Shown here one piece after another: positions 12,953 through 49,808 of a stretch of 64,000 nt of DNA. The notes below the pieces were generated by a model. It was not told where the DNA came from, did not search any database, and saw nothing but the letters and a program-made list of their open reading frames with translations. Every line of letters begins with the position of its first letter. Positions within the stretch are counted from its first letter, which is position 1. Made by a program: the position numbers and the translations under genes. This DNA is from Minisyncoccota bacterium (GTDB taxonomy: Bacteria > Patescibacteriota > Minisyncoccia > Phycocordibacterales > UBA9973): contig JBBABB010000002.1 in the NCBI GenBank assembly GCA_041657885.1, positions 121,095 through 185,094 of the forward strand, given 5' to 3'.

Positions 12953-14671
12953 ATGGAAACAAAAAACTGCCAGAATTGTAAAAAAGAGTTCACTATCGAG
13001 CCAGATGATTTTTTATTTTACGAAAAAATAAAAGTTCCTCCGCCAACTTTTTGTCCGGAGTGTCGATATATCCACCGACTTTTGGATAGGAACGAATACA
13101 ATTTGTATAAAAGAAAATGTAATGCAACGAGTAAAGATATTATTTCCATCTATCGGCCGGAGATGCCATTCCCGGTCTATGAACAAGAATATTGGAAGTC
13201 CGACGCCTGGGATCCGACGAAGTATGGACGTGATTTTGATTTTACCAGGCCATTTTTCGAACAATTTGAAGAACTTCGCCGTGTTGTGCCACATTTGGCA
13301 ATGGTTAATTCGAGTAGCACCAACAGTGAATATACAAACCAGTCTCAAGATAATAAGGACTGCTATATGCTTGTCACGAGTAATCAATGTGAAAAGTGTA
13401 TGTATGGGAGCTGGTGTCAACAAAGCTGTTATTTTTTGAGTGACTGCTATATGGTACAAAAAAGCGAATTTTGTTATGAATGTATTAATCTCACAAAATG
13501 TTCACGATGTGCTTGGGCATATGATTGCTCTGATTGTGTAAATGTGTACTTTTCAAGTGATTGCCGAGGGTGTATTGATTGTTTCGGTTGTGTTGGGCTT
13601 CGAAGTAAACAGTATCATTTTTTAAACGAAAACATTGGGAAAGCTGAGTATGAAAAGAAAGTTAAGGAAAATGCCTGGAGTAGAAATTTTATAAAGGATT
13701 CAAAGGAAAAATTTTTCAAACTTCGCGCTAGTATTCCCGTAAAGTTTTATCATGGTTCACAGGTTCAAAACTCGACAGGAGACTATATAGAGAATTCACA
13801 AAATATGAATTATTCATTTAATTGTCGAGATAATAAAGACACAGCTTACATGCAGGATGCTTGGGAAAAAACGGAAGATTGTATGGATTGCACGGAAATA
13901 ATTGTTGGACAATTATCATACGAAATTCAAGGCGTCGAGAGACCGAGCAGATCAATGGTGGCAAGAAGTTGTTTTAATACGATAACCGATTCATGTTATT
14001 GTGATATGTGTTTTGGGGTTCGGGAATGCTTTGGTTGTTTCGGTCTTAAACATAACGAATATTGCATTTTAAATAAACAATACACTAAAGAAGAATATTT
14101 TAAATTAAAAGGTGAAGTTATCGAGCATATGAGGAAAACAAAAGAGTGGGGCAAATATTTTCCGTCCAATGTTTCGCCATTTGCCTATAATGAATCTATG
14201 GCCCAGGATTACTTTCCGCTTACGCGTGATGAAGCCATAAAAAAAGGATATACATGGTATGACCGACCACCACGCGATTACGGGATAACTCTTTCGGCAA
14301 AAGATTTACCTGAAACGTTTAATGATATAAAAGAAAATATTGAAGAGGAAACAATACAATGTTTCTCGCAAAATTCTAACCAAAAAGAAAAATACACTTT
14401 GTGTACAACAGCATTCAAAATAACATCACTTGAATTAACTTTGTATAAAATGCTTAATTTGCCTATTCCGGAGAAATGTTTCCCTTGTCGAAGACAAGAC
14501 AGATTTGCTCTCCGCAACCCGCGCCGACTTTGGCACCGAACATGTATGTGTGACAAGAAAGGGCACTTTCATGGTGAAAATAAATGCCAAGTGGAATTTG
14601 AGACTTCATATGCACCCGAGAGACCGGAGATTATTTATTGCGAAAGTTGTTACCAGAAGGAAGTGTATTAA
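12953..14671 (+). CDS. Cysteine-rich paralog 1 of 5 (zinc-ribbon-like N- and C-termini, internally duplicated CxxC-repeat core)
   Basis: N-terminus CQNCKKEFTIEPDDFLFYEKIKVPPPTFCPECR, C-terminus CFPCRRQDRFALRNPRRLWHRTCM...ETSYAPERPEIIYCESCYQKEVY; two internal blocks each ending C.GC.GL..K.Y..LN..YTKEEY; homologous along the full length to the ORFs at 33493, 41537, 43883, 48078. Confidence 0.75.
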   Translation: METKNCQNCKKEFTIEPDDFLFYEKIKVPPPTFCPECRYIHRLLDRNEYNLYKRKCNATSKDIISIYRPEMPFPVYEQEYWKSDAWDPTKYGRDFDFTRPFFEQFEELRRVVPHLAMVNSSSTNSEYTNQSQDNKDCYMLVTSNQCEKCMYGSWCQQSCYFLSDCYMVQKSEFCYECINLTKCSRCAWAYDCSDCVNVYFSSDCRGCIDCFGCVGLRSKQYHFLNENIGKAEYEKKVKENAWSRNFIKDSKEKFFKLRASIPVKFYHGSQVQNSTGDYIENSQNMNYSFNCRDNKDTAYMQDAWEKTEDCMDCTEIIVGQLSYEIQGVERPSRSMVARSCFNTITDSCYCDMCFGVRECFGCFGLKHNEYCILNKQYTKEEYFKLKGEVIEHMRKTKEWGKYFPSNVSPFAYNESMAQDYFPLTRDEAIKKGYTWYDRPPRDYGITLSAKDLPETFNDIKENIEEETIQCFSQNSNQKEKYTLCTTAFKITSLELTLYKMLNLPIPEKCFPCRRQDRFALRNPRRLWHRTCMCDKKGHFHGENKCQVEFETSYAPERPEIIYCESCYQKEVY

Positions 14672-14677
14672 AATATT

Positions 14678-14854
14678 ATGACTAATTTTCAAACAATTAA
14701 AAAACGAGCTTTTAAAAATAAAGCAGTCAAAAAAGCATATGATGATTTAAATCTTCCAATGTTTTCAGAAATTACTAATATAAATACTTATTCTAAAAGC
14801 TTTTCTTTTTTAAAAAAAGAGCCAGATATTTATTCAACTTCAAAAATAAAATAA
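14678..14854 (+). CDS. Possible small Lys-rich ORF (58 aa) just downstream of paralog 1
   Basis: ATG 7 nt after the upstream stop; MTNFQTIKKRAFKNKAVKKAYDDL...; below the track threshold, no motif. Confidence 0.15.
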   Translation: MTNFQTIKKRAFKNKAVKKAYDDLNLPMFSEITNINTYSKSFSFLKKEPDIYSTSKIK

Positions 14855-14871
14855 TGTTGTATAATTAATTT

Positions 14872-15255
14872 ATGGAATACGTATCATTTGAAGAATTCAA
14901 AAAAATGGATATAAGGGTGGGAACGATTAGAGAGGTGGAAACCATTCCAGAAACTGACAAACTTTTACGTTGCCAGATTGATTTCGGACCCTCCTTCGCT
15001 TCTGGTGAAGCTACGGCGGGCGAAGGAAGTGAACCCAGATCAAATTTAGTGCAAATTATTTCTGGAATTCGTGAATCTTATCCAGATTATGAAAAATTAA
15101 TTGGCAAACAAGTTTTATATATTGTAAATCTAGAGCCGAGAATTATTAAAGGATTTGAATCAAATGGAATGCTCCTGGCGATTGATGACCCAGACGGTAA
15201 ATCAGTGTTTTTAATCCCAGAAGTTGAAGTTGTCCCGGGAAGTCGTATCCACTAG
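14872..15255 (+). CDS. csaA: tRNA-binding domain protein (CsaA/Trbp111-like, EMAP-type OB fold)
   Basis: FKKMDIRVGTIREVETIPETDKLLRCQIDFG...GKQVLYIVNLEPRIIKGFESNGMLLA matches the tRNA-binding domain found in CsaA and the MetRS C-terminus. Confidence 0.65.
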   Translation: MEYVSFEEFKKMDIRVGTIREVETIPETDKLLRCQIDFGPSFASGEATAGEGSEPRSNLVQIISGIRESYPDYEKLIGKQVLYIVNLEPRIIKGFESNGMLLAIDDPDGKSVFLIPEVEVVPGSRIH

Positions 15256-15265
15256 AAATTTAATA

Positions 15266-18532: not shown

Positions 18533-18605
18533 GCGCGATTAGCTCAGTTGGTAGAGCAATCCGTTTACACCGGAAAGGTCGTAGGTTCGAGTCCTACATC
18601 GCGCA
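18533..18605 (+). tRNA. tRNA-Val (anticodon UAC)
   Basis: GCGCGAT acceptor, GCTCAGTTGGTAGAGC D-arm, anticodon loop TTTACAC, T-arm GTAGGTTCGAGTCCTAC, acceptor ATCGCGC, discriminator A. Confidence 0.85.
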
Positions 18606-18704: not shown

Positions 18705-18776
18705 GCCCCTGTAGTTAAATGGATATAACTACGGACTTCTAAGCCGTTATTGCAGGTTCGATTCCTGCCGGGGGCA
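18705..18776 (+). tRNA. tRNA-Arg (anticodon UCU)
   Basis: GCCCCTG acceptor (one G-U pair), anticodon loop CTTCTAA, T-arm GCAGGTTCGATTCCTGC, acceptor CGGGGGC, discriminator A. Confidence 0.75.
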
Positions 18777-20833: not shown

Positions 20834-22201
20834 ATGAAATACAATAAAGGTTTTGCACCAATGGTTCTTCTTTTAATTGTCCTAGGAGTGGCGGTTGTCG
20901 GGGGTGTTATATATTATACAGGCAAAAGTCCAAAAATTTTACCTCAAACTGAAGAAAATAACTCACTTCAGGAAAATCAGAATGTTGTAAATAAGCCTGT
21001 GCAAGACAATCAGATAAAAAATACTACAGATAATATTTCATATATCAAAGTTGATAAAAATAATTCTGTTGTACTTGCTAACAATTCTTTTGCTTTTGAT
21101 GTTTTTTCTAAACTTATTAAAAAGGGAGAAAACACTTTCTTTTCACCTTTTAGTATTTCAAGTGCATTTGGAATGGTATACGAAGGAGCAAATGGTAAGA
21201 CAGCCGATGAGATACAATCAGTTTTTCATTTTCCAAAAGATATTAACATTCTTAGAACTTCATTTTCTTCAATAAATAATGAAATCAATAAACCAAACAG
21301 CGACTATCAACTTACTATTGCAAATGCTCTATGGGCGCAAAAAGATTACAAGTTTTTAGATGAATATTTTTCTAATGTAGATAAATATTACAGTGGGAAA
21401 GCAACAAATCTTGATTTTAAAAATGCTACAGAGGATGCGAGATTGACTATTAATAAATGGATCGAAGATAAAACAAACAGCAAAATAAAAGATATTCTTC
21501 CTCCAAAATCTTTGGATACTATGACCAAGCTTGTTTTAACCAATGCGATTTATTTTAATGGGAAATGGGACAAGACGTTTGATAAAAAAGAGACCAAAGC
21601 CGACACCACTTTCTTGTCTGACTCTGGAAATGATATAAAGGTTAATATGATGCAACAGTCTAATGACGATAAAACAATATTTAACTATACAGAAAATGAA
21701 AATTCACAGATGTTAGAAATGCCATACAAAGGAGATAAACTATCAATGATTATTGTTCTTCCAAAGGAAAATAACATAACTTCATTTGAAAAATTATTTA
21801 CTTTATCAAATTTTGACAATTGGAAAAAAAATCTAAAAAAACAGCGTGTGAATGTTTACATACCGCAATTTAAGTTTGGCATAAAATATCTAATGGCTGA
21901 TACTTTAAAATTAATGGGTATGCCCACTGCTTTTTCAGGAAATGCCGATTTCTCTAAAATGGATGGAACAAAGGACTTGTTTATTAGCAGTGTAATTCAT
22001 CAGGCTTTTGTTGATGTTAATGAAGATGGCACAGAGGCAGCAGCTGCGACGGTTATTTCTATGAATGCTGGATCATACTTTCATGAAGGACCTGTGATAC
22101 CGACATTTTATGCCAATCATCCATTTTTGTTTGTAATTCAAGATACGACAAATGGAAATATATTATTTATAGGCAAGATTGTAAATCCTAGTTTAAAATA
22201 A
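20834..22201 (+). CDS. Serpin (serine protease inhibitor) with N-terminal signal anchor
   Basis: Serpin hinge GTEAAAATV before the reactive-centre loop, NAIYFNGKWDKTF breach motif, C-terminal HPFLFVIQD. Confidence 0.85.
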   Translation: MKYNKGFAPMVLLLIVLGVAVVGGVIYYTGKSPKILPQTEENNSLQENQNVVNKPVQDNQIKNTTDNISYIKVDKNNSVVLANNSFAFDVFSKLIKKGENTFFSPFSISSAFGMVYEGANGKTADEIQSVFHFPKDINILRTSFSSINNEINKPNSDYQLTIANALWAQKDYKFLDEYFSNVDKYYSGKATNLDFKNATEDARLTINKWIEDKTNSKIKDILPPKSLDTMTKLVLTNAIYFNGKWDKTFDKKETKADTTFLSDSGNDIKVNMMQQSNDDKTIFNYTENENSQMLEMPYKGDKLSMIIVLPKENNITSFEKLFTLSNFDNWKKNLKKQRVNVYIPQFKFGIKYLMADTLKLMGMPTAFSGNADFSKMDGTKDLFISSVIHQAFVDVNEDGTEAAAATVISMNAGSYFHEGPVIPTFYANHPFLFVIQDTTNGNILFIGKIVNPSLK

Positions 22202-28518: not shown

Positions 28519-28524
28519 AATTTT

Positions 28525-33492: not shown

Positions 33493-35211
33493 ATGAAAAG
33501 TGAAGCAAAAAATTGTCAGAATTGTAAAAAAGACTTTGTTATCGAGCCGGATGATTTTTCATTTTATGAAAAAATAAAAGTTCCACCGCCAACTTTTTGC
33601 CCGGAGTGTCGGGGGATGAGAAGAATGGTGTGGAGGAATGAGAGAATTTTTTATCATAGGACATGCAATCTTTGTGGGATAAAGGTAATTTCGGTATTCG
33701 GGAATAAAGATATTAAGGTGTATTGTCAGAAATGTTGGTGGGGAGATGGCTGGGATGGATTAGAGTACGAGCAAGATTATGATTTCTCAAAGAGTTTTTT
33801 TGAGCAATATAAAAATCTATTTAGAAACGTTCCACAGATTAATTTAAATGGTCACGCAACAAACAAAAATTCAGATTACGTTAATTATATAGTTCAAGCG
33901 AATAATTCTTATTATTGTTTTGGGGGAGGATACTTGGATAATATTATGTTTTCTACTGTTGGAGTTAGAATGAAAGATTCAGCAGAAATATATTTTTCAA
34001 TGGATTGTGAGTTTTGTTATGAAATACTAAATTGCCAAAAATGTTATAGAATTTATTATGGGAATAATTTGAGAGATTGTCTCGATAGTTATTTTTTACA
34101 AGATTGCGTGAATTGCAATGAATGTATATTGTCGTGTAACTTGCGCAACAAACAATATGTGTTTAGAAATGAACAATTGACGAGAGAAGAGTATTTGATG
34201 AAAAAAGAGGAATTTTTAATTCTGTTTAGAAAAGATGTTTCATTGTTAAAAAATGAATTTAAAAAAATAGTATTAGAAAAACCAAAAAAGTTTGCAAATA
34301 TATTGAAATCAGAATTTTCAACAGGAGATAATATAACCGAAAGTTCAAAAGTTTATGATTCTTTTAATGTTTCAAAAACTGAAAATTGTAAATACTCTCA
34401 AGATATAGTCGGCGTGGCCCATGATGTTTACGACAGTACTAGTATCGGCCTGGGATTAGAACGAGTGTATGAATCAATGTCAGTAAGCATGAATATAACA
34501 GATGTGAATTTTTCAGTAATAGTAAGAAGTGCATCATATAAATTAAATTATTCTTTTTCTATGCATGCATCTTCTAATTGTTTCGGTTGTGTAGGATTAA
34601 AAAGTAAATCTTATTGCATCCTCAACCGCCAATACACCAAAGAAGAATACGAAGAATTAGTTCCAAAGATCATCCAGCATATGAACGATATGCCCTACAT
34701 AGATAGCAAAGGAAGAATATACAAATATGGAGAGTTTTTTCCAAGTGAACTATCACCATTCTGTTACAACGAGACAATCGCCCAAGAGTATTTTCCTTTG
34801 ACTAAAGAACAAGCTCTACAACAAGGTTACAAATGGAAGGAGAAAGAAGAAAGAAACTACCAAATAGACATTAAAAATGAAGATATCCCTGATAATATTA
34901 AAGATATAACTGATGATATCATCGGTAAAGTCATAGAATGCTCTCACAAAGGCACCTGTAACCAACAATGTACCGAAGCCTTCAAGATAATCCCCGAAGA
35001 ACTCCAATTCTACCGTCGTATGAACCTTCCATTACCAAGACTTTGTCCCAACTGTCGGCACTATGAACGTCTAGCTCAACGTAATCCTATGAAATTATGG
35101 CATAGGAAGTGTATGCATGAGGGTTGTACCAATGAATTTGAGACGAATTATGCCCCAGAGAGACCCGAAATCATTTATTGTGAGAAATGTTATCAAAAAG
35201 AGGTGTATTAA
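33493..35211 (+). CDS. Cysteine-rich paralog 2 of 5
   Basis: Same architecture as 12953; N-terminus CQNCKKDFVIEPDDFSFYEKIKVPPPTFCPECR, C-terminus ...NYAPERPEIIYCEKCYQKEVY. Confidence 0.75.
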   Translation: MKSEAKNCQNCKKDFVIEPDDFSFYEKIKVPPPTFCPECRGMRRMVWRNERIFYHRTCNLCGIKVISVFGNKDIKVYCQKCWWGDGWDGLEYEQDYDFSKSFFEQYKNLFRNVPQINLNGHATNKNSDYVNYIVQANNSYYCFGGGYLDNIMFSTVGVRMKDSAEIYFSMDCEFCYEILNCQKCYRIYYGNNLRDCLDSYFLQDCVNCNECILSCNLRNKQYVFRNEQLTREEYLMKKEEFLILFRKDVSLLKNEFKKIVLEKPKKFANILKSEFSTGDNITESSKVYDSFNVSKTENCKYSQDIVGVAHDVYDSTSIGLGLERVYESMSVSMNITDVNFSVIVRSASYKLNYSFSMHASSNCFGCVGLKSKSYCILNRQYTKEEYEELVPKIIQHMNDMPYIDSKGRIYKYGEFFPSELSPFCYNETIAQEYFPLTKEQALQQGYKWKEKEERNYQIDIKNEDIPDNIKDITDDIIGKVIECSHKGTCNQQCTEAFKIIPEELQFYRRMNLPLPRLCPNCRHYERLAQRNPMKLWHRKCMHEGCTNEFETNYAPERPEIIYCEKCYQKEVY

Positions 35212-39171: not shown

Positions 39172-40984
39172 AATTATTTTTGCAATAATGTTTATTGCAT
39201 TCGCATTGTCTTTTGTTTTACCTGTTTTCGCTGATACAAAAATTAATTTACAAATAAAAACAAATACTCAAACAATTTATGATAGTGAAATAACTGTAAC
39301 CCCTTGCGATAGTGAAAGTGATGGAATATTAAAAGAGACTCCATATTGTGCACTTGCACAGTCTGGTACACCGAGTGATTGGACGGGCTTATGGGTGAAC
39401 TCTATAAATAATATAATCAATAATGATAATGGTAACGGCGCATATTGGATGTGGCTTGCAAATTTAAACATTGATACTAGCCCAACTTCTCCATATTCTC
39501 TCTCCTCTAAGCAATATATTTTACAAGGTAATGATAATATACTCTTTTACTATAATACAAACCCTCTTGATATATCTGTTGATAATGAAAATCCAAAAGT
39601 TGGGGAGAGTATAAAAATAACTGGGAAAGAATTAGGTCTGGATTCATCATGGAATCCTTTATGGAATAAAGCTATTGGTGGGAAAGTAGTAATTAATGGA
39701 GAAGAACACGAATTAAATGAAAATGGTGAATTTCTGTTTGAAATAATAAATGAAGATAGTCTTTTAATAAAAATAAAAAAAGAGAATTTTATTGATTCAA
39801 GAGAAGTAACAATAACACCGGAGAAAATTAGAAGGAGCAGTGGAAGCAGAGCAGGATCTTATATCAACACAAGTGTAATAGAAAAATCGTTTTCTGTAGC
39901 TAATGCGATTTTATTTTTATCTCAAAATCAACAAAATGATAGGTCATATGGTTTACCCATGTACACTGACTGGGTAGCGATAGCGGTATCAGCAGGAGAT
40001 AATTCTAATCTGAAATTAAGTATAACAAATTATTTAAAATCAAATTCTATAAATTCATCTATTCTTACAGATAATGAAAGGCGTGCTATGTCCTTAATGG
40101 CTCTTGGAATTAATCCATACATAGGAACTGATGTAAATTATATTAAGAAAATTACTGATAATTTTGATGGAATACAATTCGGAGATAATTCACTTATAAA
40201 TGATGACATCTTTGCTTTGATTGTTCTTAAAAATGCAGGCTATACTATAAATGATGAAATAATTATAAAAGATATAAATTATATAATTTCAAAACAATTT
40301 TTAGATGGTTCGTGGGGAAATGTTGATATGACTTCTGCTGGTATTCAAGCGTTAAGAAGTTTTGAAAATATTGTTTTAGTACCAGAATCTATTTCAAAAG
40401 CAGAAAATTATTTGATTTCAAGTCAAGAACCTGACGGGGGATTTGGTAATTCATTTTCAACTTCTTGGGCATTACAGTCATTACAAAATAATGACCAGAT
40501 TTTAAAAGCTCTGAAATATTTAACTTCAAAGCAAGAAGTAGATGGAGGAATGGAAAGCATTGATGTAGACATAAATACTCGTATTTGGGTGACTGCTTAT
40601 GTAATACCTGCCATGCTTCATAAACCTTGGAATGAAATTTTAAATAATTTTCCTAAAGAAATAGTATTAGATGATTCTGTTCCGACAAAAATAGAAGATA
40701 AAAAAATTATTGAGGTTCCCAAAATAAAAAATATAAGGAAGTCCAACTTCCTTAAAATCTCTGGAAGCCTGCCCGACGACGGCAAGGCGGGTTCGACTTC
40801 CAGAAATTCTGAATCTTTATCAAAAAATTTAGAAGAAAAGGACATTTCAGTTAATCCATTATCAGTAAGTGCTATTGGATCTAATCAAAATAATAATAGT
40901 GGCACATTTTTCCCTGTAATTTATAGAATTTTACAAAAAATAAGAATTCCATTTGTGTGGCTTTGGGTTCACCTTGGTTTTTGA
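39161..40984 (+). CDS. Secreted alpha/alpha-toroid (prenyltransferase/terpene-cyclase-like repeat) protein with C-terminal hydrophobic anchor
   Basis: Signal peptide; four repeats of the QxxDGGWG type (LSQNQQNDRSYGL, QFLDGSWGN, SQEPDGGFGN, SKQEVDGGME) typical of the alpha6/alpha6 barrel fold shared with the transcobalamin alpha-domain. Confidence 0.45.
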   Translation: MKNKIIFAIMFIAFALSFVLPVFADTKINLQIKTNTQTIYDSEITVTPCDSESDGILKETPYCALAQSGTPSDWTGLWVNSINNIINNDNGNGAYWMWLANLNIDTSPTSPYSLSSKQYILQGNDNILFYYNTNPLDISVDNENPKVGESIKITGKELGLDSSWNPLWNKAIGGKVVINGEEHELNENGEFLFEIINEDSLLIKIKKENFIDSREVTITPEKIRRSSGSRAGSYINTSVIEKSFSVANAILFLSQNQQNDRSYGLPMYTDWVAIAVSAGDNSNLKLSITNYLKSNSINSSILTDNERRAMSLMALGINPYIGTDVNYIKKITDNFDGIQFGDNSLINDDIFALIVLKNAGYTINDEIIIKDINYIISKQFLDGSWGNVDMTSAGIQALRSFENIVLVPESISKAENYLISSQEPDGGFGNSFSTSWALQSLQNNDQILKALKYLTSKQEVDGGMESIDVDINTRIWVTAYVIPAMLHKPWNEILNNFPKEIVLDDSVPTKIEDKKIIEVPKIKNIRKSNFLKISGSLPDDGKAGSTSRNSESLSKNLEEKDISVNPLSVSAIGSNQNNNSGTFFPVIYRILQKIRIPFVWLWVHLGF

Positions 40985-41536: not shown

Positions 41537-43252
41537 ATGAAGAATGAAATTAAAAGCTGTCAAAACTGCAAGCTTCAATTTACAATTGAGTCCGATGATT
41601 TTTCATTTTACGAAAAAATTAAAGTTCCTCCACCAACTTTTTGTTCTGAGTGCAGGATGAAAGCACGTTATGCTTTTCGTAGTCAGACATCTCTATATAG
41701 AAGAATTTGTGACCTTTGTAAAGTAAGTATTATATCTATGTATGATTCAGATAAACCATTTCCAGTATATTGTCGAGATTGCTTTTATGGAGATAAATGG
41801 GATGCCACTTCATATGAACAGGATTATGATTTTGATAAATCATTTTTTGAGCAATTTAAAGAGTTAATGAATAAAACTCCACGAATTGCACTCATAGGGA
41901 CTAATAAGATAAATAGTGATTATACGACGCATTGCAGTGATATTAAAAATTGTTATTTATGTTTTAGTATTGGTCATTCCGAAGATTGTTTTTATCTAGG
42001 TCCTCAGTGTGTTAATGATAAGAATTGTTCTTCTTGCTCGATAACAAGATTTTCTGAATGGTCTTATATGCTTGTTGATTGTGAACAATGTTATAAAGTG
42101 AGTTTTTCTCAAATTTCTGTTAACTGTATTGAATCAATGTTTTTGTATGATTGTAGAAATTGTCAAAATTGTTTGGGTTGTACTAACTTAAGAAATAAGA
42201 ATTATTTTATTCTTAATCAACAATACACTAAGGAAGAATATTTAGTTAAGAAAAAAGAGTTAGCCCTTAATACATTTGATGGTTTTGAAAAATTCAAAAA
42301 AGAGTTTGAAAATTTAAAGAAAATATCCCTTCATAAATATTCTAGTGTAACTAATTCAAAAGATTGTACTGGTGATAACATTATTAATTCTCGAAACTGC
42401 AAAAATTGTTTCGTTATTTATGATTCAGAGAATACAAAATACAGTTATATCTGCAATAAAGCAAAAGAATGTATGGATGTTACTCATGTTTATCCATCTT
42501 CCGAATTTTCTTATTATTCCATTGCTCCTATTTATTCAAGTAAAATATACTTTTCTTCATTTATACAGTCGAATAGTTATGATATGTGGTATTCTGATAA
42601 TTGTTATACTTCTCATGATTGTTTTGGTTCAATATCTTTAAAAAATAAAAGTTATTGTATTTTAAATAAGCAATATACAGAAGAAGAATATTTTAAATTA
42701 AAGGAAAAGATAATTTTTCAGATGAGTTCTGTGCCATATTTAGGTAAGAATAATAGAGTTTATAATTTTGGTGATTTTTTCCCGTTTGAAATAAGTCCTT
42801 TTGATTATAATGAAAGTGTTCTTCAGGAATATTTTCCATTAACGAAAGAAGAAATTTTAAAAAGTGGATATTCTTGGCATGATCCTATTAATAAATCTTA
42901 CGAAATATCTATAAAAGCAGAAGATTTATCTTTACGTATTCAAGAAATTGGAGATGATATAATAAAAGAAACAATAGAGTGCGAACATAAAGGAAATTGT
43001 GCACATAATTGTAGTACAGCTTTTCGTATTTTACCAGATGAAATGCAAATTTATAAAACACTTGAAGTTCCTATCCCCAAATTATGTCAAAATTGTCGTT
43101 ATGCGGAAAGAATTTCATTAAGAAATCCAATGAAACTCTGGCATCGGTCTTGTATGAAAGAAGGGTGTATTAATGAATTTGAGACCTCTTATGCGCCAGG
43201 AAGGCCTGAAATTGTTTATTGTGAGAATTGTTATAATAAAGAAATATATTGA
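41537..43252 (+). CDS. Cysteine-rich paralog 3 of 5
   Basis: N-terminus CQNCKLQFTIESDDFSFYEKIKVPPPTFCSECR, C-terminus ...SYAPGRPEIVYCENCYNKEIY; same internal blocks. Confidence 0.75.
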   Translation: MKNEIKSCQNCKLQFTIESDDFSFYEKIKVPPPTFCSECRMKARYAFRSQTSLYRRICDLCKVSIISMYDSDKPFPVYCRDCFYGDKWDATSYEQDYDFDKSFFEQFKELMNKTPRIALIGTNKINSDYTTHCSDIKNCYLCFSIGHSEDCFYLGPQCVNDKNCSSCSITRFSEWSYMLVDCEQCYKVSFSQISVNCIESMFLYDCRNCQNCLGCTNLRNKNYFILNQQYTKEEYLVKKKELALNTFDGFEKFKKEFENLKKISLHKYSSVTNSKDCTGDNIINSRNCKNCFVIYDSENTKYSYICNKAKECMDVTHVYPSSEFSYYSIAPIYSSKIYFSSFIQSNSYDMWYSDNCYTSHDCFGSISLKNKSYCILNKQYTEEEYFKLKEKIIFQMSSVPYLGKNNRVYNFGDFFPFEISPFDYNESVLQEYFPLTKEEILKSGYSWHDPINKSYEISIKAEDLSLRIQEIGDDIIKETIECEHKGNCAHNCSTAFRILPDEMQIYKTLEVPIPKLCQNCRYAERISLRNPMKLWHRSCMKEGCINEFETSYAPGRPEIVYCENCYNKEIY

Positions 43253-43415: not shown

Positions 43416-43841
43416 ATGCTTTACGAAACAGTACAAAAAGAGGATAAAGAGATTGTTTTTGTTTATACAACATGTGGAAGTATAGAAGAAGCAAGGTCAA
43501 TAGGTCTTTCTGCCATAAAAGAAAGATTGGCCATTTCTGCGGATTATTGGCTTATCAATTCAATATATCCATGGAAAGGTGTTATCCAAGAGATAGGTCA
43601 GTGTATGCTTATGTTTGCAACGCAGAAAACCTTAAGTGACAAGTTAATCAAACATATAGAAGCAGAGCATTCATACAGTGTTCCAATTATTATAAGGAGT
43701 GAGACATCTTTGACAAATCAGGAGTATGCTTTTTGGGTAGATAATACACTAACAGGCAAAGAGGAATATATCACCGAAGCCGAAGAACAACTTAAAAAGA
43801 AAAATGAGGAAGTAGGGTATCATTATGATAGACTTAAGTAA
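43416..43841 (+). CDS. cutA: Divalent-cation tolerance protein CutA-like
   Basis: VFVYTTCGSIEEARSIGLSAIKERLAISADYW...PWKGVIQE...HSYSVPIII pattern of the CutA1 family. Confidence 0.65.
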   Translation: MLYETVQKEDKEIVFVYTTCGSIEEARSIGLSAIKERLAISADYWLINSIYPWKGVIQEIGQCMLMFATQKTLSDKLIKHIEAEHSYSVPIIIRSETSLTNQEYAFWVDNTLTGKEEYITEAEEQLKKKNEEVGYHYDRLK

Positions 43842-43882: not shown

Positions 43883-45604
43883 TTGGAATACCAATCAACA
43901 ATAAAACAGTGTCAAAATTGCAAGAATGACTTCACCATTGAGTCCGATGATTTTTCATTTTATGAAAAAATAAAGGTTCCTGCCCCAACTTTTTGTCCGG
44001 AGTGCCGTATGATAAGAAGAATGACTTGGAGGAATGAAAGGTCTTTTTTTAAAAGGGATTGTGATTTTACTGGTAAACCGATAATCACAATGTTCCATCC
44101 TGAAGCTAATGTAAAAATATATGATCATGATGTTTGGTGGAGTGATAAATGGGAACCAACTGATTACGGCATGGATTATGATTTTTCTCGACCGTTCTTT
44201 AAGCAATATCAAGAACTTTTGTCTAAAGTTCCGCTTCAAAACTTAGGAAATAATCGTTGCATTAATTCCCCATATTGTAACCATTGTGCTGACTGTAAAA
44301 ATTGTTATTTAGTTTATGCTTCTTATCTGGCTGAAGATATTTTATATTCTCAAGGGGCTGGTTCTTTAAAAAGTTGTATTGACACTTATTCAATTATGAA
44401 ATCGGAGCAATGTTATGAAGACGTTCTTTGTGATTCTCTATATCAGGTCAATTTTTCTTTTGGCTCTGATCAATCAATTAATTCTTCTTTTTTGAAAGAA
44501 TGTATAAATTGTCAAGAATGTATCTGTTGTATAAATCTTCGTAATAAAAAATATTGTATTTTTAATAAGCAATATACCAAAGAAGAATATTTAAAAATTA
44601 AAGAAAGTTTAGATTTTGGAAGTTATAAAGTATTGTCTGAATTTAAAAAACAATATAAAGAATTCATTCTTAAATTTCCTTGCAAATATGCTGGAATATT
44701 AAAATCTCCTGATTCATCTGGGGATTGTATTTTAAATTCAAAAAATGTAAAACAGTCTTTTGATATTTACGGCGATATTGAAGATTCAAAATATGTAGCT
44801 CATGGTTTAGGGGCTAAAGACAGTTATGATGTTTATGGTTTTGGAGCTGGAGCTTTTCTTTTGTATGAGGGAGTAGATATTGGTATTAGGGGATCCAATA
44901 ATTATTTTTGCGTTCTTAATCATGGAAGCATTAATACTCAATATACTTATATGTGCTATAATGCCAAAAATCTTTTTGGTTGTATTGGTATAAGAAAAGG
45001 AGAATATTGTATTTTAAATAAAAAATATTCTAAAGAAAAATATGAAGAATTGGTTCCTAAAATAATAGAACATATGAACAATATGCCTTACATAGATAAT
45101 AAGGGTAGAATCTATAAATATGGAGAATTTTTTCCATCAGAATTAAGTCCATTTGCTTACAACGAAACCATAGCACAAGAATATTTTCCTAAAACAAAAA
45201 ACGAAATAGAAAACGATGGATATTTGTACAGAAAATCTCCCAAAAGGGAATATAAAACGACTATAAATTCTAAAGATTTACTAGATAATATAAATGAAGT
45301 AAATGATAATATCATAGATGAAATTATCGCTTGCCCAAATAATGGCAATGAATTAACCTTATGTACACAAGCATATCGCATAGTTAAAGATGAATTAACT
45401 TTTTTAAGAAGATATAATATCGCCTTACCGCGTTACTGTCCTAATTGCAGACACTATGAACGCCTATCTCAAAGAAATCCTATGAAATTATGGCACCGAA
45501 AATGCATGAAGGAAGGATGTAATAATGAATTTGAGACAAGTTATGCCCCAGAAAGGCCCGAGATTATTTATTGTGAGAAGTGCTATCAGAAGGAAGTGTA
45601 TTAA
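43883..45604 (+). CDS. Cysteine-rich paralog 4 of 5
   Basis: N-terminus CQNCKNDFTIESDDFSFYEKIKVPAPTFCPECR, C-terminus ...SYAPERPEIIYCEKCYQKEVY; a block near residues 388-440 is almost identical in protein to paralog 2. Confidence 0.75.
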   Translation: MEYQSTIKQCQNCKNDFTIESDDFSFYEKIKVPAPTFCPECRMIRRMTWRNERSFFKRDCDFTGKPIITMFHPEANVKIYDHDVWWSDKWEPTDYGMDYDFSRPFFKQYQELLSKVPLQNLGNNRCINSPYCNHCADCKNCYLVYASYLAEDILYSQGAGSLKSCIDTYSIMKSEQCYEDVLCDSLYQVNFSFGSDQSINSSFLKECINCQECICCINLRNKKYCIFNKQYTKEEYLKIKESLDFGSYKVLSEFKKQYKEFILKFPCKYAGILKSPDSSGDCILNSKNVKQSFDIYGDIEDSKYVAHGLGAKDSYDVYGFGAGAFLLYEGVDIGIRGSNNYFCVLNHGSINTQYTYMCYNAKNLFGCIGIRKGEYCILNKKYSKEKYEELVPKIIEHMNNMPYIDNKGRIYKYGEFFPSELSPFAYNETIAQEYFPKTKNEIENDGYLYRKSPKREYKTTINSKDLLDNINEVNDNIIDEIIACPNNGNELTLCTQAYRIVKDELTFLRRYNIALPRYCPNCRHYERLSQRNPMKLWHRKCMKEGCNNEFETSYAPERPEIIYCEKCYQKEVY

Positions 45605-45792
45605 AATTCTCCTCTTGAGGTGAAGTTGGGTTGGGACCCAACTGTAAAACCTTTTGAGATATCTTTGTAATCAAAGTATCCAAAAGGTGTACTGCTCCTG
45701 TAAGGAGTACCTGTTAATGCAGGGGAGGTGGATATATTTAACTTATCCACCCCGTCCTTTGGGTACAAAGTCCACCCCTCAAGAGGGGAATA
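45605..45792 (+). ncRNA. Conserved ~190-nt structured element, copy B, directly after the paralog 4 stop
   Basis: First 108 nt identical to copy A; remaining differences keep base-pairing (cccgc/gcggg to cctgt/gcagg; shortened ggtggat..atccacc hairpin). Confidence 0.5.
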
Positions 45793-45840
45793 AAACACAG
45801 ATTCTTATTCTTTTTTGTTTTTATTTGGTATAATATAACT

Positions 45841-47598
45841 ATGCATGTTGATGAAAAAACAATCATAGATCTTCTTGATAGTTCTGGGTTGGTTACTAAA
45901 ACAGATATTTCTGTTGCACTCAAAAAAGCTAAAGAGACCAACCAATCACTTGGTTCTATTTTGGTTTCAAGTGGTAAATTAATTGAAAAAGATTGGAATA
46001 AAATTCAAGCGATGTCACTCGGTATTCCGTTTGTCAGCTTAGAAGGGGAGAAAATTGACCCAAATGTTTTGACTTTAATTCCTGAGCCAATCGCTCGAAA
46101 TAGTAATATTATTGCTTATAAAAAAACCAATCTCGGCTTGGAAGTGGCAATGCTTGATGTAGAGAACCTTCCTGTTATTGATTTTATCAAAAAGAAAGTC
46201 GGGTTACGTATTCTTCCTCGAATAACAAGCTCTCAATCTATAAAAGAGGCACTTAATCAATATAAGAAAAGTTTACAAGCAGACTTTGAAGATATTATTA
46301 AAAAAGAAAGTAATTCTATAAAACCAATATCTAATGATGGCACTGTCGCTGAAGAAAAAACAGAAAAAGAATTAAAGGAATTAGCAGAGGATTTACCGAT
46401 TGTGAAGATTGTAGATACTCTTATTTCACACGCTATTTTTCAAGGAGCTTCAGATATACACATAGAGCCGTGTGAAGAGTCTCTCGTTATTCGCTATCGT
46501 ATAGATGGTATTTTACACGATGCGATGATTTTACCAAAAGATACAGCTTCTGGAATTGTTGCCCGTGTTAAAGTTTTGTCTAATTTAAAACTTGATGAAA
46601 AGCGTCTTCCTCAAGATGGACGTTTTAAAATTGTGAATGAACAAGGAGGTGTTTCTTTCCGTGTTTCTACATTGCCTACATATTATGGTGAGAAAACTGT
46701 TATTCGTATTTTGCGAGAAAATGCTAAGGGTTTTTCCTTAGAAGGACTTGGTTTTCATGGTGAAGCTCTTGAACGAATCCATGATGGGATGAAGAAACGC
46801 ACAGGGATGCTTCTAGCTACCGGTCCAACTGGTTCTGGTAAAACAACTACTCTCTACTCTATGCTTGATATTTTAAATACTACAGATGTAAACATTTCAA
46901 CAGTTGAAGACCCTATTGAATACCAAATGCCACGTATTAATCAAACTCAAACAAAATCTGAAATAGGTCTAACTTTTGCGAATGGTCTACGTACATTACT
47001 CCGACAAGACCCAGATATAATAATGGTCGGAGAAATTCGTGATAAAGAGACCGCATCACTTGCTATTAATGCGAGTTTGACGGGGCATCTTGTTTTATCT
47101 ACTATTCACACTAACTCTGCAGCAGGAGCAATACCGCGTATGATAGATATGGGAGTAGAACCATTTTTAATTGTTTCAACTGTTAAAACGGTTATAGCCC
47201 AAAGATTAGTTCGTAAATTGTCCGATGGAAAAGAAAAATATTTTTTAAGTGATATAGAAAAGAATGCCTTAAAAAAAATTGTGGATCTTGACCGTGTGCT
47301 TGGATTTTTGAAAGAAGAAAAAGTTGTTTCTCCTGATGCAACATGGGATATGATTCCATTTTATAAACCAAAACCAAGCGAAGAATCAAACGATGGTTAT
47401 AAGGGGCGTATTGGTATTCATGAAGTTTTAAAAGTTACCACTTCAATTAAAGAAATGATATTAAAGGGTTTATCTGTTGATGAGATAGAAAAGAGAGCCA
47501 TGGAAGAAGGAATGATGACAATGATTGAAGATGGCATATTCTTAGCGGTTCAAGGGGGAACATCAACAGAAGAAGTGCTTCGTGTTGTTTCAGAATAA
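45841..47598 (+). CDS. pilB: Type IV pilus assembly ATPase PilB (GspE family)
   Basis: N-terminal GSPII_E-N type domains, Walker A GPTGSGKTTT, Asp/His boxes, C-terminal tetracysteine-less variant. Confidence 0.85.
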   Translation: MHVDEKTIIDLLDSSGLVTKTDISVALKKAKETNQSLGSILVSSGKLIEKDWNKIQAMSLGIPFVSLEGEKIDPNVLTLIPEPIARNSNIIAYKKTNLGLEVAMLDVENLPVIDFIKKKVGLRILPRITSSQSIKEALNQYKKSLQADFEDIIKKESNSIKPISNDGTVAEEKTEKELKELAEDLPIVKIVDTLISHAIFQGASDIHIEPCEESLVIRYRIDGILHDAMILPKDTASGIVARVKVLSNLKLDEKRLPQDGRFKIVNEQGGVSFRVSTLPTYYGEKTVIRILRENAKGFSLEGLGFHGEALERIHDGMKKRTGMLLATGPTGSGKTTTLYSMLDILNTTDVNISTVEDPIEYQMPRINQTQTKSEIGLTFANGLRTLLRQDPDIIMVGEIRDKETASLAINASLTGHLVLSTIHTNSAAGAIPRMIDMGVEPFLIVSTVKTVIAQRLVRKLSDGKEKYFLSDIEKNALKKIVDLDRVLGFLKEEKVVSPDATWDMIPFYKPKPSEESNDGYKGRIGIHEVLKVTTSIKEMILKGLSVDEIEKRAMEEGMMTMIEDGIFLAVQGGTSTEEVLRVVSE

Positions 47599-47602
47599 AA
47601 AT

Positions 47603-48001
47603 ATGGAAAAAGATTTTAATAAATGGAATGATAAAAAGAAGGAAACTCATAAACTAGAAAATCAAAAGATTTTTTATGAACGTGAAGTTTGGTGGTGTAT
47701 TTTTGGTATAAATATTGGAACAGAAATAGATGGAAAACATGAACTCTTTTTAAGGCCAGCAGTTGTTGTAAGGAAATTCAATAAAGATATGGCTATTGTT
47801 GTTCCAACAACAGCACAAGTTAAATCCAATAAATATTATTTTTCAGTTTCTGGGGTTGATGAAAAAACTTATAATACCTGTCTTTCCCAAATTAAAAATA
47901 TAAGTTCTAAAAGATTATTTAGAAAAATTGGAACAATTAAAGGAGAAGATTATTTAGTTTTATTAGATAAATTATCAAAGATGATAAAAGGGACTCTCTA
48001 A
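47603..48001 (+). CDS. PemK/MazF-family endoribonuclease toxin-like protein (no cognate antitoxin seen)
   Basis: RPAVVV, VVPTTAQVK, KKIGTIKGEDYLVLLDKL align with MazF RPAVVLS / CVPCTTQSK / KKGTV..EL; start taken at ATG 47603, 5 nt after the pilB stop. Confidence 0.5.
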   Translation: MEKDFNKWNDKKKETHKLENQKIFYEREVWWCIFGINIGTEIDGKHELFLRPAVVVRKFNKDMAIVVPTTAQVKSNKYYFSVSGVDEKTYNTCLSQIKNISSKRLFRKIGTIKGEDYLVLLDKLSKMIKGTL

Positions 48002-48006
48002 ACAAC

Positions 48007-48030
48007 GAAATCCCCTTGCGGGGATTTCTC
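48007..48030 (+). terminator. Hairpin after the mazF-like gene
   Basis: gaaatcccc ttgc ggggatttc: 9-bp stem, no T-run. Confidence 0.4.
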
Positions 48031-48077
48031 AGAGGCCGAAGCCCATAATCACTATAAGTATATCAAACCTAGATATC

Positions 48078-49808
48078 ATGTCAAGCACAAAATCACAAAT
48101 CAAAATCTGTCAGAACTGTAAAAAAGACTTCATTATTGAGCCAGATGATTTTCTATTCTATGAAAAAATAAAAGTCCCTCCACCCACTTTTTGCCCGGAG
48201 TGTAGGATGATTAGAAGAATGACTTTTAGAAATGAAAGGACTCTTTATAGAAGAACTTGTGAAGCAAAGGAACATGGGGAACAAATACTTTCTGTATTTT
48301 CACCTGATAAAAAACAAAAAGTATTTTGTCATAGTGCTTGGTGGGGTGATAGCTGGGATGGAATTGAATATGCAAAAGATTATGATTTTTCAAAAACTTT
48401 TTTCTCTCAAATACAGGAATTATGGCAATCTGTCCCAGACATAGGACTTTTCAATATTAATCCAGTAAATAGTGAATATTGTAGTATAACAGAAGGTAAT
48501 AAAAATTGTTATTTAGTAATTGGTGGTGATTTTAATGAGGATACAAGGTATTCCTGTTTTATATTTCATAGCAAGGAATGTGCTGATTGCTATGGTATAT
48601 CAAAAAGCGAGTGGAATTATGAAGTTATAGATTCAATTCAAAATTATAACTTATCATACAGTCAATATTGTGAAGGTTGTTATGATAGTGTTTTTTTATT
48701 TAATTGTAAAAATTGTAGTAATTGTTTTGGTTGTACTAATTTAAATAATGGTTCTTATTCTTGGTTTAATGAACAATTAACAAAAGACGAATACAAAACA
48801 AGATTAGAAGAAATAAATTTAGGAAGTTATATCTCTATACTAAAACATAAAAAAGATTTTTATGAATTTTCGTTAAAATTTCCTAGAAAGTATTCTAGAA
48901 TACTAAGGTCTGTAAATTCTACAGGAGACAATATGGAACAAGCTAAAAATTGTAAAGAATGTTTTGGGATTTTTGATGGAGCGGAAGATTGTAGATATTT
49001 ATGGTTAATATACTCGAAAATAACGAATTCTTTTGATTCAGATCATTCAGGATTAAAATCAAATTTACTTTATGAATGTTCAACTGTCTATCCTGGCAAT
49101 ATTGTATTATTTTCACGTTTTATATTTAATGGACGCGAAGTAGAATATTCATATAATTGCCACAACTCGTCAAATATTTTTGGATGTATAGGTTTAAGAA
49201 ATAAACAATATTGTATTTTAAATAAGCAGTATTCTAAAGAAGAATATAAGGAATTAAGACTAAAAATTATAGAGCATATGAATAAAACCCCATATGTTAA
49301 TAGTGCAGGGAATATATATAAATATGGTGAATTTTTTCCAGAAGAAATTTCTCCTTTTGCTTATAATGAAACTGTAGCAAATGAATTGCTTCCATTAGGA
49401 GAAGAAAAAGTAAAAAAGAGTGGATATCTCTGGAAACAAAAGGAAGGGAAGAACTATGCAATTACAAAAAACTTTAACGATTTACCAGATAATATTAATC
49501 AAGTGGATATTTCTATAACAAAGGAAACGATACAATGTACTCACAATGGTAATTGTAATGATGGATGTTCTACAGCATTTAAAATAACAGAAGATGAATT
49601 AAATTTCTATAAAAAAATGAATATTCCATTACCAAGACTATGTTCAAATTGTAGACACTATGAAAGATTGCAAAGCAGGAATCCTATAAAGCTCTGGCAT
49701 CGAACTTGCATGAAAGAAGGGTGTAATAATGAATTTGAGACAAGCTACGCCCCAGAGAGACCGGAAATTGTGTATTGTGAGAAGTGTTATCAACAAGAGG
49801 TATATTAA
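48078..49808 (+). CDS. Cysteine-rich paralog 5 of 5
   Basis: N-terminus CQNCKKDFIIEPDDFLFYEKIKVPPPTFCPECR, C-terminus ...SYAPERPEIVYCEKCYQQEVY. Confidence 0.75.
   Translation: MSSTKSQIKICQNCKKDFIIEPDDFLFYEKIKVPPPTFCPECRMIRRMTFRNERTLYRRTCEAKEHGEQILSVFSPDKKQKVFCHSAWWGDSWDGIEYAKDYDFSKTFFSQIQELWQSVPDIGLFNINPVNSEYCSITEGNKNCYLVIGGDFNEDTRYSCFIFHSKECADCYGISKSEWNYEVIDSIQNYNLSYSQYCEGCYDSVFLFNCKNCSNCFGCTNLNNGSYSWFNEQLTKDEYKTRLEEINLGSYISILKHKKDFYEFSLKFPRKYSRILRSVNSTGDNMEQAKNCKECFGIFDGAEDCRYLWLIYSKITNSFDSDHSGLKSNLLYECSTVYPGNIVLFSRFIFNGREVEYSYNCHNSSNIFGCIGLRNKQYCILNKQYSKEEYKELRLKIIEHMNKTPYVNSAGNIYKYGEFFPEEISPFAYNETVANELLPLGEEKVKKSGYLWKQKEGKNYAITKNFNDLPDNINQVDISITKETIQCTHNGNCNDGCSTAFKITEDELNFYKKMNIPLPRLCSNCRHYERLQSRNPIKLWHRTCMKEGCNNEFETSYAPERPEIVYCEKCYQQEVY

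Follow-up and report, generated by a model that had tools for sequence, protein, structure and literature searches.

What is a protein that occurs in five copies, none of them annotated, within a single 64-kb piece of a small bacterial genome, and what could it be for? The window analyzed here, a stretch of 64,000 nucleotides from a Minisyncoccota bacterium (GenBank assembly GCA_041657885.1, contig JBBABB010000002.1, positions 121,095 to 185,094, forward strand), contains five such genes, all on the forward strand, which together occupy 8.6 kb (13%) of its length. We refer to the family of these paralogs by the working label FAM, and number residues as in paralog 2 throughout. As detailed below, FAM is a large family with a five-part architecture that in other genomes lies next to soluble ATPases related to type IV coupling proteins (T4CPs), and we tentatively propose that its members are adaptors or cargo of these ATPases.

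The five paralogs

Paralog 1 (12953..14671; 572 aa, 40 cysteines) is the most divergent copy and carries a full ladder of cysteines in its central region, whereas paralog 2 (33493..35211; 572 aa, 32 cysteines in total) has few cysteines in the core; the other members are paralog 3 (41537..43252; 571 aa), paralog 4 (43883..45604; 573 aa, TTG start codon) and paralog 5 (48078..49808; 576 aa). The window paralogs contain 32 to 40 cysteines each, within a family-wide range of 22 to 49 (median 37). A previous sequence-only reading had taken these open reading frames (ORFs) for homologs along their entire length. They are indeed 40-50% identical to each other in pairwise BLASTP comparisons, paralogs 2-5 align with paralog 1 collinearly from end to end at 41-42% identity, and five other long ORFs from the window, used as controls, failed to align with the paralogs. 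The paralogy thus holds under proper alignment, and the strong expansion in a small genome is supported as well. A tblastn search of the window with all five proteins as queries detected no sixth copy or fragment.

The same reading had failed to recognize the family, and so did the databases. The full proteins produced no match at curated cut-offs in Pfam or NCBIfam, profiles of the end modules and of the linker (see below) likewise stayed below threshold, none of the five paralogs matched a PADLOC family at E<=0.1, known DNA- or RNA-binding domains did not reach threshold, and every source name is 'hypothetical protein'. A literature search found no published description of the family.

As had been noted from the sequence, none of the five has a signal peptide, and no membrane segment was detected either: the maximum Kyte-Doolittle hydropathy in a 19-residue window is <=1.19 in all five. 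Given this lack of hydrophobic segments, and because the N-terminus leads directly into the first CxxC, FAM proteins are predicted to be cytoplasmic. The whole proteins are mildly acidic (isoelectric point, pI, 6.0-6.5), with acidic cores and linker; the C-terminal module has a pI of 7.8-8.7 in four of the five paralogs.

Two internal duplications define a five-part architecture

Comparison of a family profile, built from 46 aligned members, with itself using hhalign revealed two internal matches. Residues 94-241 align with residues 244-393 (probability 99.4%, E 1.5e-21), in agreement with the tandem duplication that had been suspected, and residues 9-82 at the N-terminus align with residues 491-567 at the C-terminus (probability 97%, E 5.5e-11). 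Because of the latter match, we regard the predicted zinc-binding regions at the two ends as copies of one module, a second duplication that had not been reported before. The layout of FAM is a two-zinc module, two consecutive beta-solenoids, a conserved aromatic linker and another two-zinc module. In paralog 2, on the forward strand, the N-terminal module spans aa 1-92 (33493..33768); solenoid repeat 1 spans aa 93-243 (33769..34221) and terminates in the cap motif DC.NC..C..C.NLRNK.Y...N..YTKEEY, after which comes a helix; solenoid repeat 2, with the C-terminal end FGC.GL..K.YCILN, spans aa 244-377 (34222..34623); the cap helix and aromatic linker span aa 378-482 (34624..34938); and the C-terminal module spans aa 483-572 (34939..35208).

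These parts evolve differently. The mean pairwise identity among the five paralogs is 0.73 in site 1 of the N-terminal module and 0.81 in site 2 of the C-terminal module vs 0.32-0.37 in the two cores, which matches the pattern of conserved ends and a diverged center seen in the sequence-only reading. Strong variation among the paralogs affects the solenoid surfaces, with the end modules and linker kept constant.

The end modules are predicted zinc fingers

Each end module has eight cysteine positions that form two sites. In the N-terminal module of paralog 2, site 1 consists of C8, C11, C36 and C39, and site 2 of C58, C61, C78 and C81, with the spacing C58-x2-C61-x16-C78-x2-C81. Only about half of the family has an intact site 2 in this module; paralogs 1, 4 and 5 have a degenerate one. 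The C-terminal module contains C483, C493, C518 and C521, then C540, C545, C563 and C566, and its division into two sites follows, by inference, the aligned N-terminal module; its site 2 would be C540-x4-C545-x17-C563-x2-C566 with YAPERPEIIYCEKC. C483, C540, C545, C563 and C566 are conserved in >=97% of the members. Paralog 1 has an extra insert, CDKKGHFHGENKC, in this module. Directly C-terminal to the second CxxC of each module are conserved basic motifs, C..CR..RR..WRNER and CPNCRHYERL.QRNP.KLWHRKC.

The site 1 sequence, CQNCKKDF.IEPDDF.FYEKIKVPPPTFCPECR, is zf_Tbcl-like: all five paralogs contain CQNCKKDFxIEPDDFxFYEKIKVPPPTFCPECR, which fits the zf_Tbcl pattern of two CxxC and F.(F/I)....(E/D)..FY......P..C..CR, and the C-terminal counterpart of this core is C...CTEAFKIIPEELQFY.RMNLPLPRLCPNCR. 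Among 26 isolated end modules, 13 matched PF13451 (zf_Tbcl) at E<=1 (best 5.7e-5), eight matched PF23477 (zf_Tbcl_2; best E 0.0057, below the 27-bit threshold) and ten matched PF00412 (LIM), in every case below threshold. For PF13451, with a gathering threshold of 24 bits, paralog 2 was the only one of the five to produce a match (14.6 bits, E 0.033); the best LIM score was 17.9 bits against a threshold of 22.9 and covered LIM positions 16-57 only. Because these gathering thresholds are not reached, FAM is not filed as a formal member of zf_Tbcl, zf_Tbcl_2 or LIM.

Other comparisons point the same way. A homolog of the FAM proteins, P0362, carries a precomputed PF13451 match; a stand-alone protein of 86 aa, P0392, which contains both PF13451 and PF23477, spans both fingers of the FAM module in hhalign (88.5%, 67 columns); and the only sequence match in the PDB obtained in a profile search was to half of a LIM domain in CRP1 (1b8t; E 3.8e-4). 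The CxxC-x17-CxxC domain of small proteins of Methanosarcina mazei has been shown to bind zinc by inductively coupled plasma mass spectrometry (PMC12704099). The sub-threshold matches, together with the hhalign matches to CxxC-x17-CxxC fingers, uphold the idea of zinc-finger termini, and by homology we infer that the FAM termini are zinc modules.

The cores are predicted beta-solenoids with a buried ladder

The AlphaFold2 (AF2) model of paralog 1 is a compact, confident monomer (predicted local distance difference test score, pLDDT, 84; predicted template modeling score, pTM, 0.87) that resembles beta-helix/solenoid folds only; a Foldseek search produced no significant match to a PDB structure. 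In the predicted structure, the cores are narrow beta-helices, that is, stacked coils of short beta-strands with an interior ladder of Cys, Ser and Val, which is what defines the beta-solenoid class, with a conserved Cys-rich cap at the end of each.

The density of CxxC motifs had suggested a repeated core binding several metals (Zn or Fe-S), and this part of the sequence-only reading did not survive. When 145 diverse members are aligned, cysteine columns appear in the core at intervals of 9-12 residues (139, 151, 163, 175, 184, 196, 205, 208, 211), and these columns are only 30-75% Cys, with Ser, Val, Ile, Leu, Thr or Ala in the remaining sequences. Because they are replaced so freely, the core cysteines fit a buried ladder rather than obligate metal ligands. 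Strongly conserved core cysteines are confined to the caps, namely C205, C208, C211 and C214 in repeat 1 and C366 and C375 in repeat 2, and these might bind one further metal. Among the ferredoxin families of Pfam, only Fer4_21 matched, in paralog 2 alone and with 13.1 bits against a cut-off of 35. The C-x2-C-x2-C-x2-C of the FAM cap lacks the proline of the ferredoxin motif, and its counterpart in repeat 2 retains two or three cysteines. Neither the Pfam Hexapep family nor [LIV]-G-x4 hexapeptide repeats were found in FAM, and there was no match to the DnaJ zinc finger (PF00684), the FAM cap being C.GC.GL and not CxxCxGxG.

The linker, with the motif NKQYTKEEY...GEFFP.E.SPF.YNET.AQEYFPLT...GY.W, holds many of the most conserved positions of the family (N378, Y381, G413, S421, Y425 and N426 are conserved in >=95% of the members) and is modeled confidently (pLDDT ~90 in a second model). 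Its profile matched nothing in the PDB or Pfam, and no obvious catalytic constellation was seen in it; we take it for a putative structural or docking element.

FAM is a large and ancient family of Parcubacteria

Each of two word-indexed searches returned at least ~8,000 matches, all of ~570 aa, and the matches that were named are all hypothetical proteins of Nomurabacteria, Paceibacterota, Staskawiczbacteria, Kaiserbacteria or Minisyncoccia. An exhaustive search of representatives clustered at 50% identity found at least 5,218 clusters with E<=1e-3, of which 2,231 have E<=1e-30; the best 150 cluster representatives are mostly full length (528-612 aa), with few shorter fragments. In a scan of one genome per species, at least 588 loci were confirmed. 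The named lineages among the listed loci are all Patescibacteria/Parcubacteria except for one contig of 267,744 bp labeled Burkholderiales bacterium (L005, JAMPXW010000002.1), which shows a gene order typical of Parcubacteria, T4CP-FAM-FAM-RsmE-T4CP-DnaJ-FAM-FAM-CysRS; the label is probably wrong and the contig mis-binned. Many third-party annotation assemblies named 'uncultured Candidatus Saccharibacteria' among the listed loci also carry FAM. No member was found among the viral contigs of IMG/VR. FAM is essentially restricted to Parcubacteria/Paceibacterota.

Most genomes that have the family have it in multiple copies. The 80 genome loci collected here contain 201 FAM genes, including tandem arrays of up to ~7 genes and ~12 kb (L079, L026) and a 21-kb locus with six copies (L023). 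Paralog 1 has a counterpart of 100% identity, P0270 (WC908_02685, from a Candidatus Paceibacterota bacterium metagenome-assembled genome), and its subfamily retains 58-79% identity across Nomurabacteria, Staskawiczbacteria and Kaiserbacteria. The closest relatives elsewhere are 84% identical for paralog 2 (P0001), 75% for paralog 4 (the RAAC4_OD1_1 copy in L037), 57% for paralog 5 and 49% for paralog 3. Because all paralogs except paralog 3 are far closer to relatives elsewhere than to each other, the paralogs appear, from these identities, to be old and individually conserved. The persistence of many ancient paralogs in reduced genomes, well under 1 Mb, suggests that the family likely has a central role.

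In other genomes FAM genes adjoin T4CP-like ATPases

Neighbors of FAM were identified by de novo clustering of all ORFs in the 80 FAM-anchored genome loci. The commonest is a P-loop ATPase, with 41 genes in 28 of the 80 loci; all but two of these genes share the strand of FAM, 26 directly adjoin it, and the gaps are often 0-100 bp. The ATPase passes the Pfam cut-offs for TrwB_AAD_bind, T4SS-DNA_transf, DUF87 and TraG-D_C. Because it scores far below the cut-offs of the NCBIfam TraD/VirD4-like models (41-51 bits against 250-648) and the FAM-linked ATPases show no membrane anchor (maximum 19-residue Kyte-Doolittle hydropathy ~1.0-1.2), it is T4CP-like, that is, a soluble VirD4/TraD/TrwB-like ATPase of the hexameric-translocase type, and not a canonical T4CP. 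A short form of ~485-510 aa (T4CPshort) can be distinguished from a long form of ~690-1,000 aa (T4CPlong), which has a long tail of low complexity and a significant zf_Tbcl_2 finger (48 bits, E 9.5e-13). The finger of the neighboring T4CP-like ATPases matches site 2 of FAM in hhalign (88%, E 3e-6).

The clusters follow two layouts. The first is PaaX(-) DnaK T4CPlong FAM(1-4) RsmE(-) T4CPshort DnaJ FAM, and it is also shown by L082, a locus with independent gene calls and Pfam annotation, in which DnaJ carries PF00684. The second is c12 c22 FAM FAM T4CP CutA FAM FAM YggT T4CP(-). The closest relatives of paralogs 1 and 4 are located inside ATPase clusters (for paralog 4, relatives in L063, L056 and L051). 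In the reciprocal test, 80 metagenome loci (L083-L162) were anchored on T4CPshort, with 84-93% identity to the query: FAM is located <=1.5 kb upstream of T4CPshort in 50 of the 63 loci with enough flanking sequence, and DnaJ follows in most of the loci that are long enough. T4CPshort itself is unusually conserved, with this identity extending over 483 aa across many metagenomes (e.g., L090 10001-11500), and the spacer in front of it mostly holds only a TGnTAAAAT-type extended -10 box.

The proteins denoted c12 (L020 807-2156; ~450 aa, with an N-terminal transmembrane helix and C-terminal ...SELATIYHIP...) and c22 (L020 2162-2674; ~170 aa) are membrane-anchored and encoded upstream of the FAM/ATPase clusters of the second layout, also in L035, L023, L027 and L036. 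Neither has a match in Pfam or NCBIfam; they are candidates for the membrane component that the ATPase system lacks.

CutA1 is another neighbor: across the 80 loci it adjoins FAM in six of six cases, in three of which it also adjoins the ATPase, and in the window the CutA1 gene (43416..43841, forward strand; Pfam CutA1 E 5e-20) lies between paralogs 3 and 4. The impression that each copy stands alone beside unrelated genes is therefore correct for the window, but not for other genomes, where FAM is tightly linked to T4CP-like ATPases and CutA1.

A survey of the candidate phyla radiation (CPR) counted 5,713 VirD4-like T4CP homologs in 2,918 genomes, only 148 of them near virB4, and its authors raise a possible exaptation of CPR t4cp (bioRxiv 10.1101/2025.01.22.634366). 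Our literature search found no published partnership of FAM and a T4CP-like ATPase. The link reported here bears on this published puzzle of coupling-protein homologs located away from any secretion system.

The presence of FAM genes between conserved neighbors varies among genomes

The Pfam matches of the genes that flank FAM in the window are RuvX, tRNA_bind, TerC/DUF475, class II ribonucleotide reductase (RNR), thioredoxin-like, CutA1, PilB, PemK/MazF-like and PilC, consistent with the neighbors named in the sequence-only reading (ruvX, terC-like, thioredoxin, cutA, pilB/mazF-like and pilC). Apart from a few syntenic relatives, none of them recurs broadly beside FAM in other genomes. The genes of ~140 aa upstream of each copy were considered as possible paralogs and rejected, as they are RuvX, thioredoxin-like, CutA1 and MazF-like.

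Occupancy of these sites varies. Between RuvX and tRNA_bind, paralog 1 is present in the window and a FAM gene in L060, and L061 and L058 have nothing there; between TerC and RNR, the window has paralog 2 and L070 nothing. In the window, a PemK/MazF-like gene and paralog 5 (47582-49808) lie between pilB and pilC, whereas in the syntenic region of L070 (11775-14754) pilB and pilC are ~5 bp apart with nothing between them. The MazF-like gene and paralog 5 are an insertion into a pilus operon that is usually contiguous. A general linkage of FAM to pilB/pilC was rejected, since pilB adjoins FAM in four of the 80 loci and is co-oriented in one. Because FAM proteins encoded at the same site are only 40-48% identical vs 62-81% for the flanking genes, the identities suggest that paralogs are replaced, or diverge fast, at a given site. 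The five genes were not found to share a transposase or flanking repeat.

A GC-rich structured element of ~195 nt is present in two copies that are 94% identical (35213-35414 and 45606-45796, forward strand), each starting ~2 nt after the stop codon of paralog 2 or 4, which are themselves 49% identical. The folding energy from RNAfold is -98.5 kcal/mol (z = -10.5), a compensatory change is seen in one stem (CCCGC/GCGGG vs CCTGT/GCAGG), and the terminal 15 nt form inverted repeats, ATTCTCCTCTTGAGG ... CCTCAAGAGGGGAAT. Rfam has no family for it (best manA, 16 bits, E 0.056). A covariance model detected versions of ~86-96 nt, on both strands, in a few spacers between FAM and the ATPase (L063 11736-11822, L104 2186-2281, L129 6540-6626, L158 9902-9987 and L114 5125-5211). 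The possibility that this is a conserved 3' regulatory RNA was rejected as a general feature of FAM: it occurs in four of 48 spacers (plus L063), and about half of the spacers are only 17-43 nt. The element looks like an optional palindromic insert, similar to miniature inverted-repeat transposable elements or repetitive extragenic palindromes, or a terminator.

What might FAM proteins do?

We tentatively favor the possibility that FAM proteins are cytoplasmic adaptor or cargo proteins of orphan T4CP-like ATPases, because the constant ends and linker would suit a common partner and the variable solenoid faces paralog-specific binding. Under this scenario, the orphan ATPases would use the FAM proteins as interchangeable adaptors or handle them as cargo. 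The zinc modules and the linker, which are constant, would dock to a common partner, either the ATPase or a nucleic acid bound by both through the shared type of finger; the divergent solenoid faces would endow each paralog with its own binding specificity; and the zinc sites would be structural clamps rather than catalytic or redox centers. A more far-reaching version, which we regard as possible though doubtful, is that FAM and the finger-bearing soluble ATPases form an unrecognized Parcubacteria-specific machine, a hexameric translocase with interchangeable zinc-capped beta-solenoid adaptors whose substrates are protein or nucleic acid. Such a machine would have from five to more than ten adaptors per genome and in many lineages would be wired into the dnaK-dnaJ operon. 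If it exists, thousands of orphan 'T4CP' genes of CPR bacteria would gain a function. The ATPase and FAM with their shared CxxC-x17-CxxC finger are a concrete, testable pair, and the domain boundaries given above are defined for expression, metal and structural work.

Several points weigh against the adaptor or cargo role. The 64 kb of the window contain no T4CP-like, DnaK or DnaJ gene, so the link comes from other genomes, and 52 of the 80 FAM-anchored loci have no ATPase within ~10 kb (e.g., L081, with three tandem FAM genes). The T4CPshort-anchored loci are close orthologs, and their agreement may mostly be synteny inherited within one clade; the second layout, which comes from other lineages, is more independent evidence. 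Gene neighborhood does not amount to physical interaction, and an adaptor, a cargo and a regulator are not separable from sequence. Furthermore, the geometry of the zinc sites and the length of the coils are deduced from sequence spacing and a secondary-structure string.

The alternative that holds up best, although we consider it somewhat unlikely, is that FAM proteins bind nucleic acids themselves, with roles in taking up or processing DNA, in transcription or in the handling of RNA. DNA or RNA would be contacted by the Arg-rich helices C-terminal to the treble-clef fingers, the solenoids would be rigid spacers or DNA mimics, and the ATPase would be a neighbor because of a shared substrate and not as a partner. 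The conserved basic motifs next to the second CxxC of each module and the basic pI of most C-terminal modules speak for this, as does the placement of the ATPase in the DNA-translocating VirD4/TraD/HerA/FtsK group (with weak TrwB_AAD_bind and CedD matches). In addition, paralogs 4 and 5 flank pilB/pilC, FAM precedes pilB in L070, and a transcription-related role has been suggested for the CxxC-x17-CxxC proteins of M. mazei (PMC12704099). However, the proteins as a whole, and their cores and linker in particular, are acidic, recognizable nucleic acid-binding domains are lacking at threshold, and adjacency to pilB is rare. Moreover, proteins are as frequent a target of such zinc fingers as nucleic acids.

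An unlikely explanation is metal or redox homeostasis, or proteostasis, in which FAM would be a zinc store, a thiol buffer or a stress-sensing, Hsp33-like holdase co-expressed with DnaK/DnaJ and CutA1. The high cysteine content, with up to four predicted Zn(Cys)4 sites per protein, fits such a role, and so do the constant adjacency of CutA1, the thioredoxin-like gene beside paralog 3, TerC beside paralog 2, and the location of FAM/ATPase genes between dnaK and dnaJ in many genomes. But the free replacement of core cysteines, and their paucity in paralog 2, imply that cysteine number is not under selection, and the strict architecture, aromatic linker and ancient orthologous subfamilies fit specific binding rather than bulk buffering. 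The neighborhood argument is weakened by the unsettled function of CutA1 itself and by the fact that the proximity of dnaK, dnaJ and rsmE is ancestral, as in the dnaK operon of Bacillus; the FAM and ATPase genes may simply have inserted there.

The location beside VirD4-like ATPases could also mean that FAM proteins are effectors or surface components, passed by the ATPase to a type IV secretion system or type IV pilus and acting on or inside the host cell of these presumed episymbionts, with the paralogs providing antigenic or target diversity; this is quite unlikely. Canonical T4CPs select substrates by C-terminal signals, and the FAM C-terminus is nearly invariant (...YCE.CYQ.EVY); divergent paralogs with constant ends, and individual genes whose presence varies between conserved neighbors, would be expected as well. 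Type IV secretion and pilus genes are widespread in CPR bacteria (bioRxiv 10.1101/2025.01.22.634366), and the window includes pilB and pilC. On the other hand, the membrane anchor found at the N-terminus of true coupling proteins is missing from the FAM-linked ATPases, and CPR T4CP homologs are almost never near virB4 (bioRxiv 10.1101/2025.01.22.634366). Tightly zinc-clamped folded domains would make poor secretion substrates, ancient paralogs conserved at 60-84% across genera do not resemble products of an arms race, and no FAM was found on viral contigs.

Self-assembly into bactofilin- or curli-like polymers, with subunits linked head to tail through their end modules to form filaments or scaffolds in the cytoplasm, is very unlikely: homologous end modules could give pseudo-symmetric contacts, and high copy number with several paralogs could allow co-polymers, but AF2 predicts a compact, confident monomer, and no cytoskeletal gene was found in the neighborhood. 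Finally, it is hardly credible that FAM genes are selfish or defense-type accessory genes lodged between housekeeping genes, for instance anti-phage sensors with the HerA/TraD-like ATPase as effector, because the variable occupancy and low same-site identity described above, the toxin-like PemK/MazF neighbor of paralog 5 and the ATPase matches to PADLOC mad8 (E 9.6e-13) and, weakly, HerA are countered by the lack of a PADLOC match for FAM itself, of near-identical copies, of a common transposase or flanking repeat, and of FAM in IMG/VR, and by the extreme conservation of T4CPshort in what is a core locus, unlike defense islands.

Other features of the window

Beyond FAM, the window encodes a full-length serpin (20834-22201; 455 aa, Pfam Serpin E 4.6e-117), bacterial serpins being uncommon, and two adjacent proteins of the GH130 (beta-1,4-mannooligosaccharide phosphorylase) family (27283-30465; 411 and 646 aa), the larger of which has an extra, unannotated N-terminal region of ~350 aa. 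A 776-aa protein (23196-25526) has marginal matches only and a Pro-rich, extensin-like stretch. A 607-aa protein (39161-40984) with an N-terminal signal-like segment and weak squalene-hopene-cyclase/cobalamin-binding-like repeats is encoded after genes for DUF4430 and for the S component of an energy-coupling factor transporter, a context that suggests uptake of cobalamin or another vitamin next to the class II RNR. The only Rfam matches in the window are four tRNAs: 12042-12128 (reverse strand), 18533-18605, 18705-18776 and 25626-25697. Nearly all genes are on the forward strand, the cumulative GC skew rises monotonically and the GC content is 30-35%, which is consistent with the window being part of one replichore of a strongly strand-biased genome.

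Comparison with known systems

The building blocks of FAM, small zinc fingers and beta-solenoids, are of known kinds, but nothing described corresponds to the family, its five-part architecture, its linker or its pairing with soluble VirD4/TraD-like ATPases. The closest counterparts of the end modules are small stand-alone zf_Tbcl (PF13451) plus CxxC-x17-CxxC (PF23477; 'CxxC-x17-CxxC domain-containing protein' in JGI and NCBI naming) zinc proteins of CPR bacteria and archaea, such as P0392 and A00184 and A01980 of M. mazei, which have the same two-finger layout. Shared are the first finger, C..C...F.I....FY......P..C..CR, and the second, C..C-x16/17-C..C with P...RP.(V/I)YC..C. However, the stand-alone proteins are 36-86 aa long and consist of the fingers alone, whereas FAM has two modules ~390 residues apart, separated by the solenoids and linker, and the second finger of its C-terminal module opens with C-x4-C instead of C-x2-C. 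LIM domains (PF00412; CRP1, 1b8t) likewise have two consecutive zinc sites, and their second finger pairs with the second half of the FAM module in the alignment. This is a half-domain match: the first FAM finger is treble-clef/zf_Tbcl-like with a long, helix-containing insert, and FAM lacks the His ligand pattern.

The cores resemble, at the level of the fold class and with no relationship in sequence (2-12% identity), the cysteine-ladder beta-helical antifreeze and ice-binding proteins of Tenebrio molitor (1ezg), Choristoneura (1m8n) and ryegrass (3ult) and other beta-solenoids, namely curli CsgA (8c50), phi29 gp12 (3gq7) and the left-handed beta-helix acyltransferases. In contrast to the predicted cytoplasmic FAM proteins, the antifreeze proteins are secreted and disulfide-bonded.

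For the pairing with an ATPase, the nearest model is the T4CPs (VirD4/TrwB/TraD), with an ATPase gene adjoining those of its proposed clients, although the Parcubacteria ATPases lack the membrane anchor and FAM does not resemble relaxases or any known effector or adaptor. The DotL coupling complex of Legionella contains a zinc-binding subunit, DotN, to which a zinc-binding FAM partner of the T4CP-like ATPases would be analogous.

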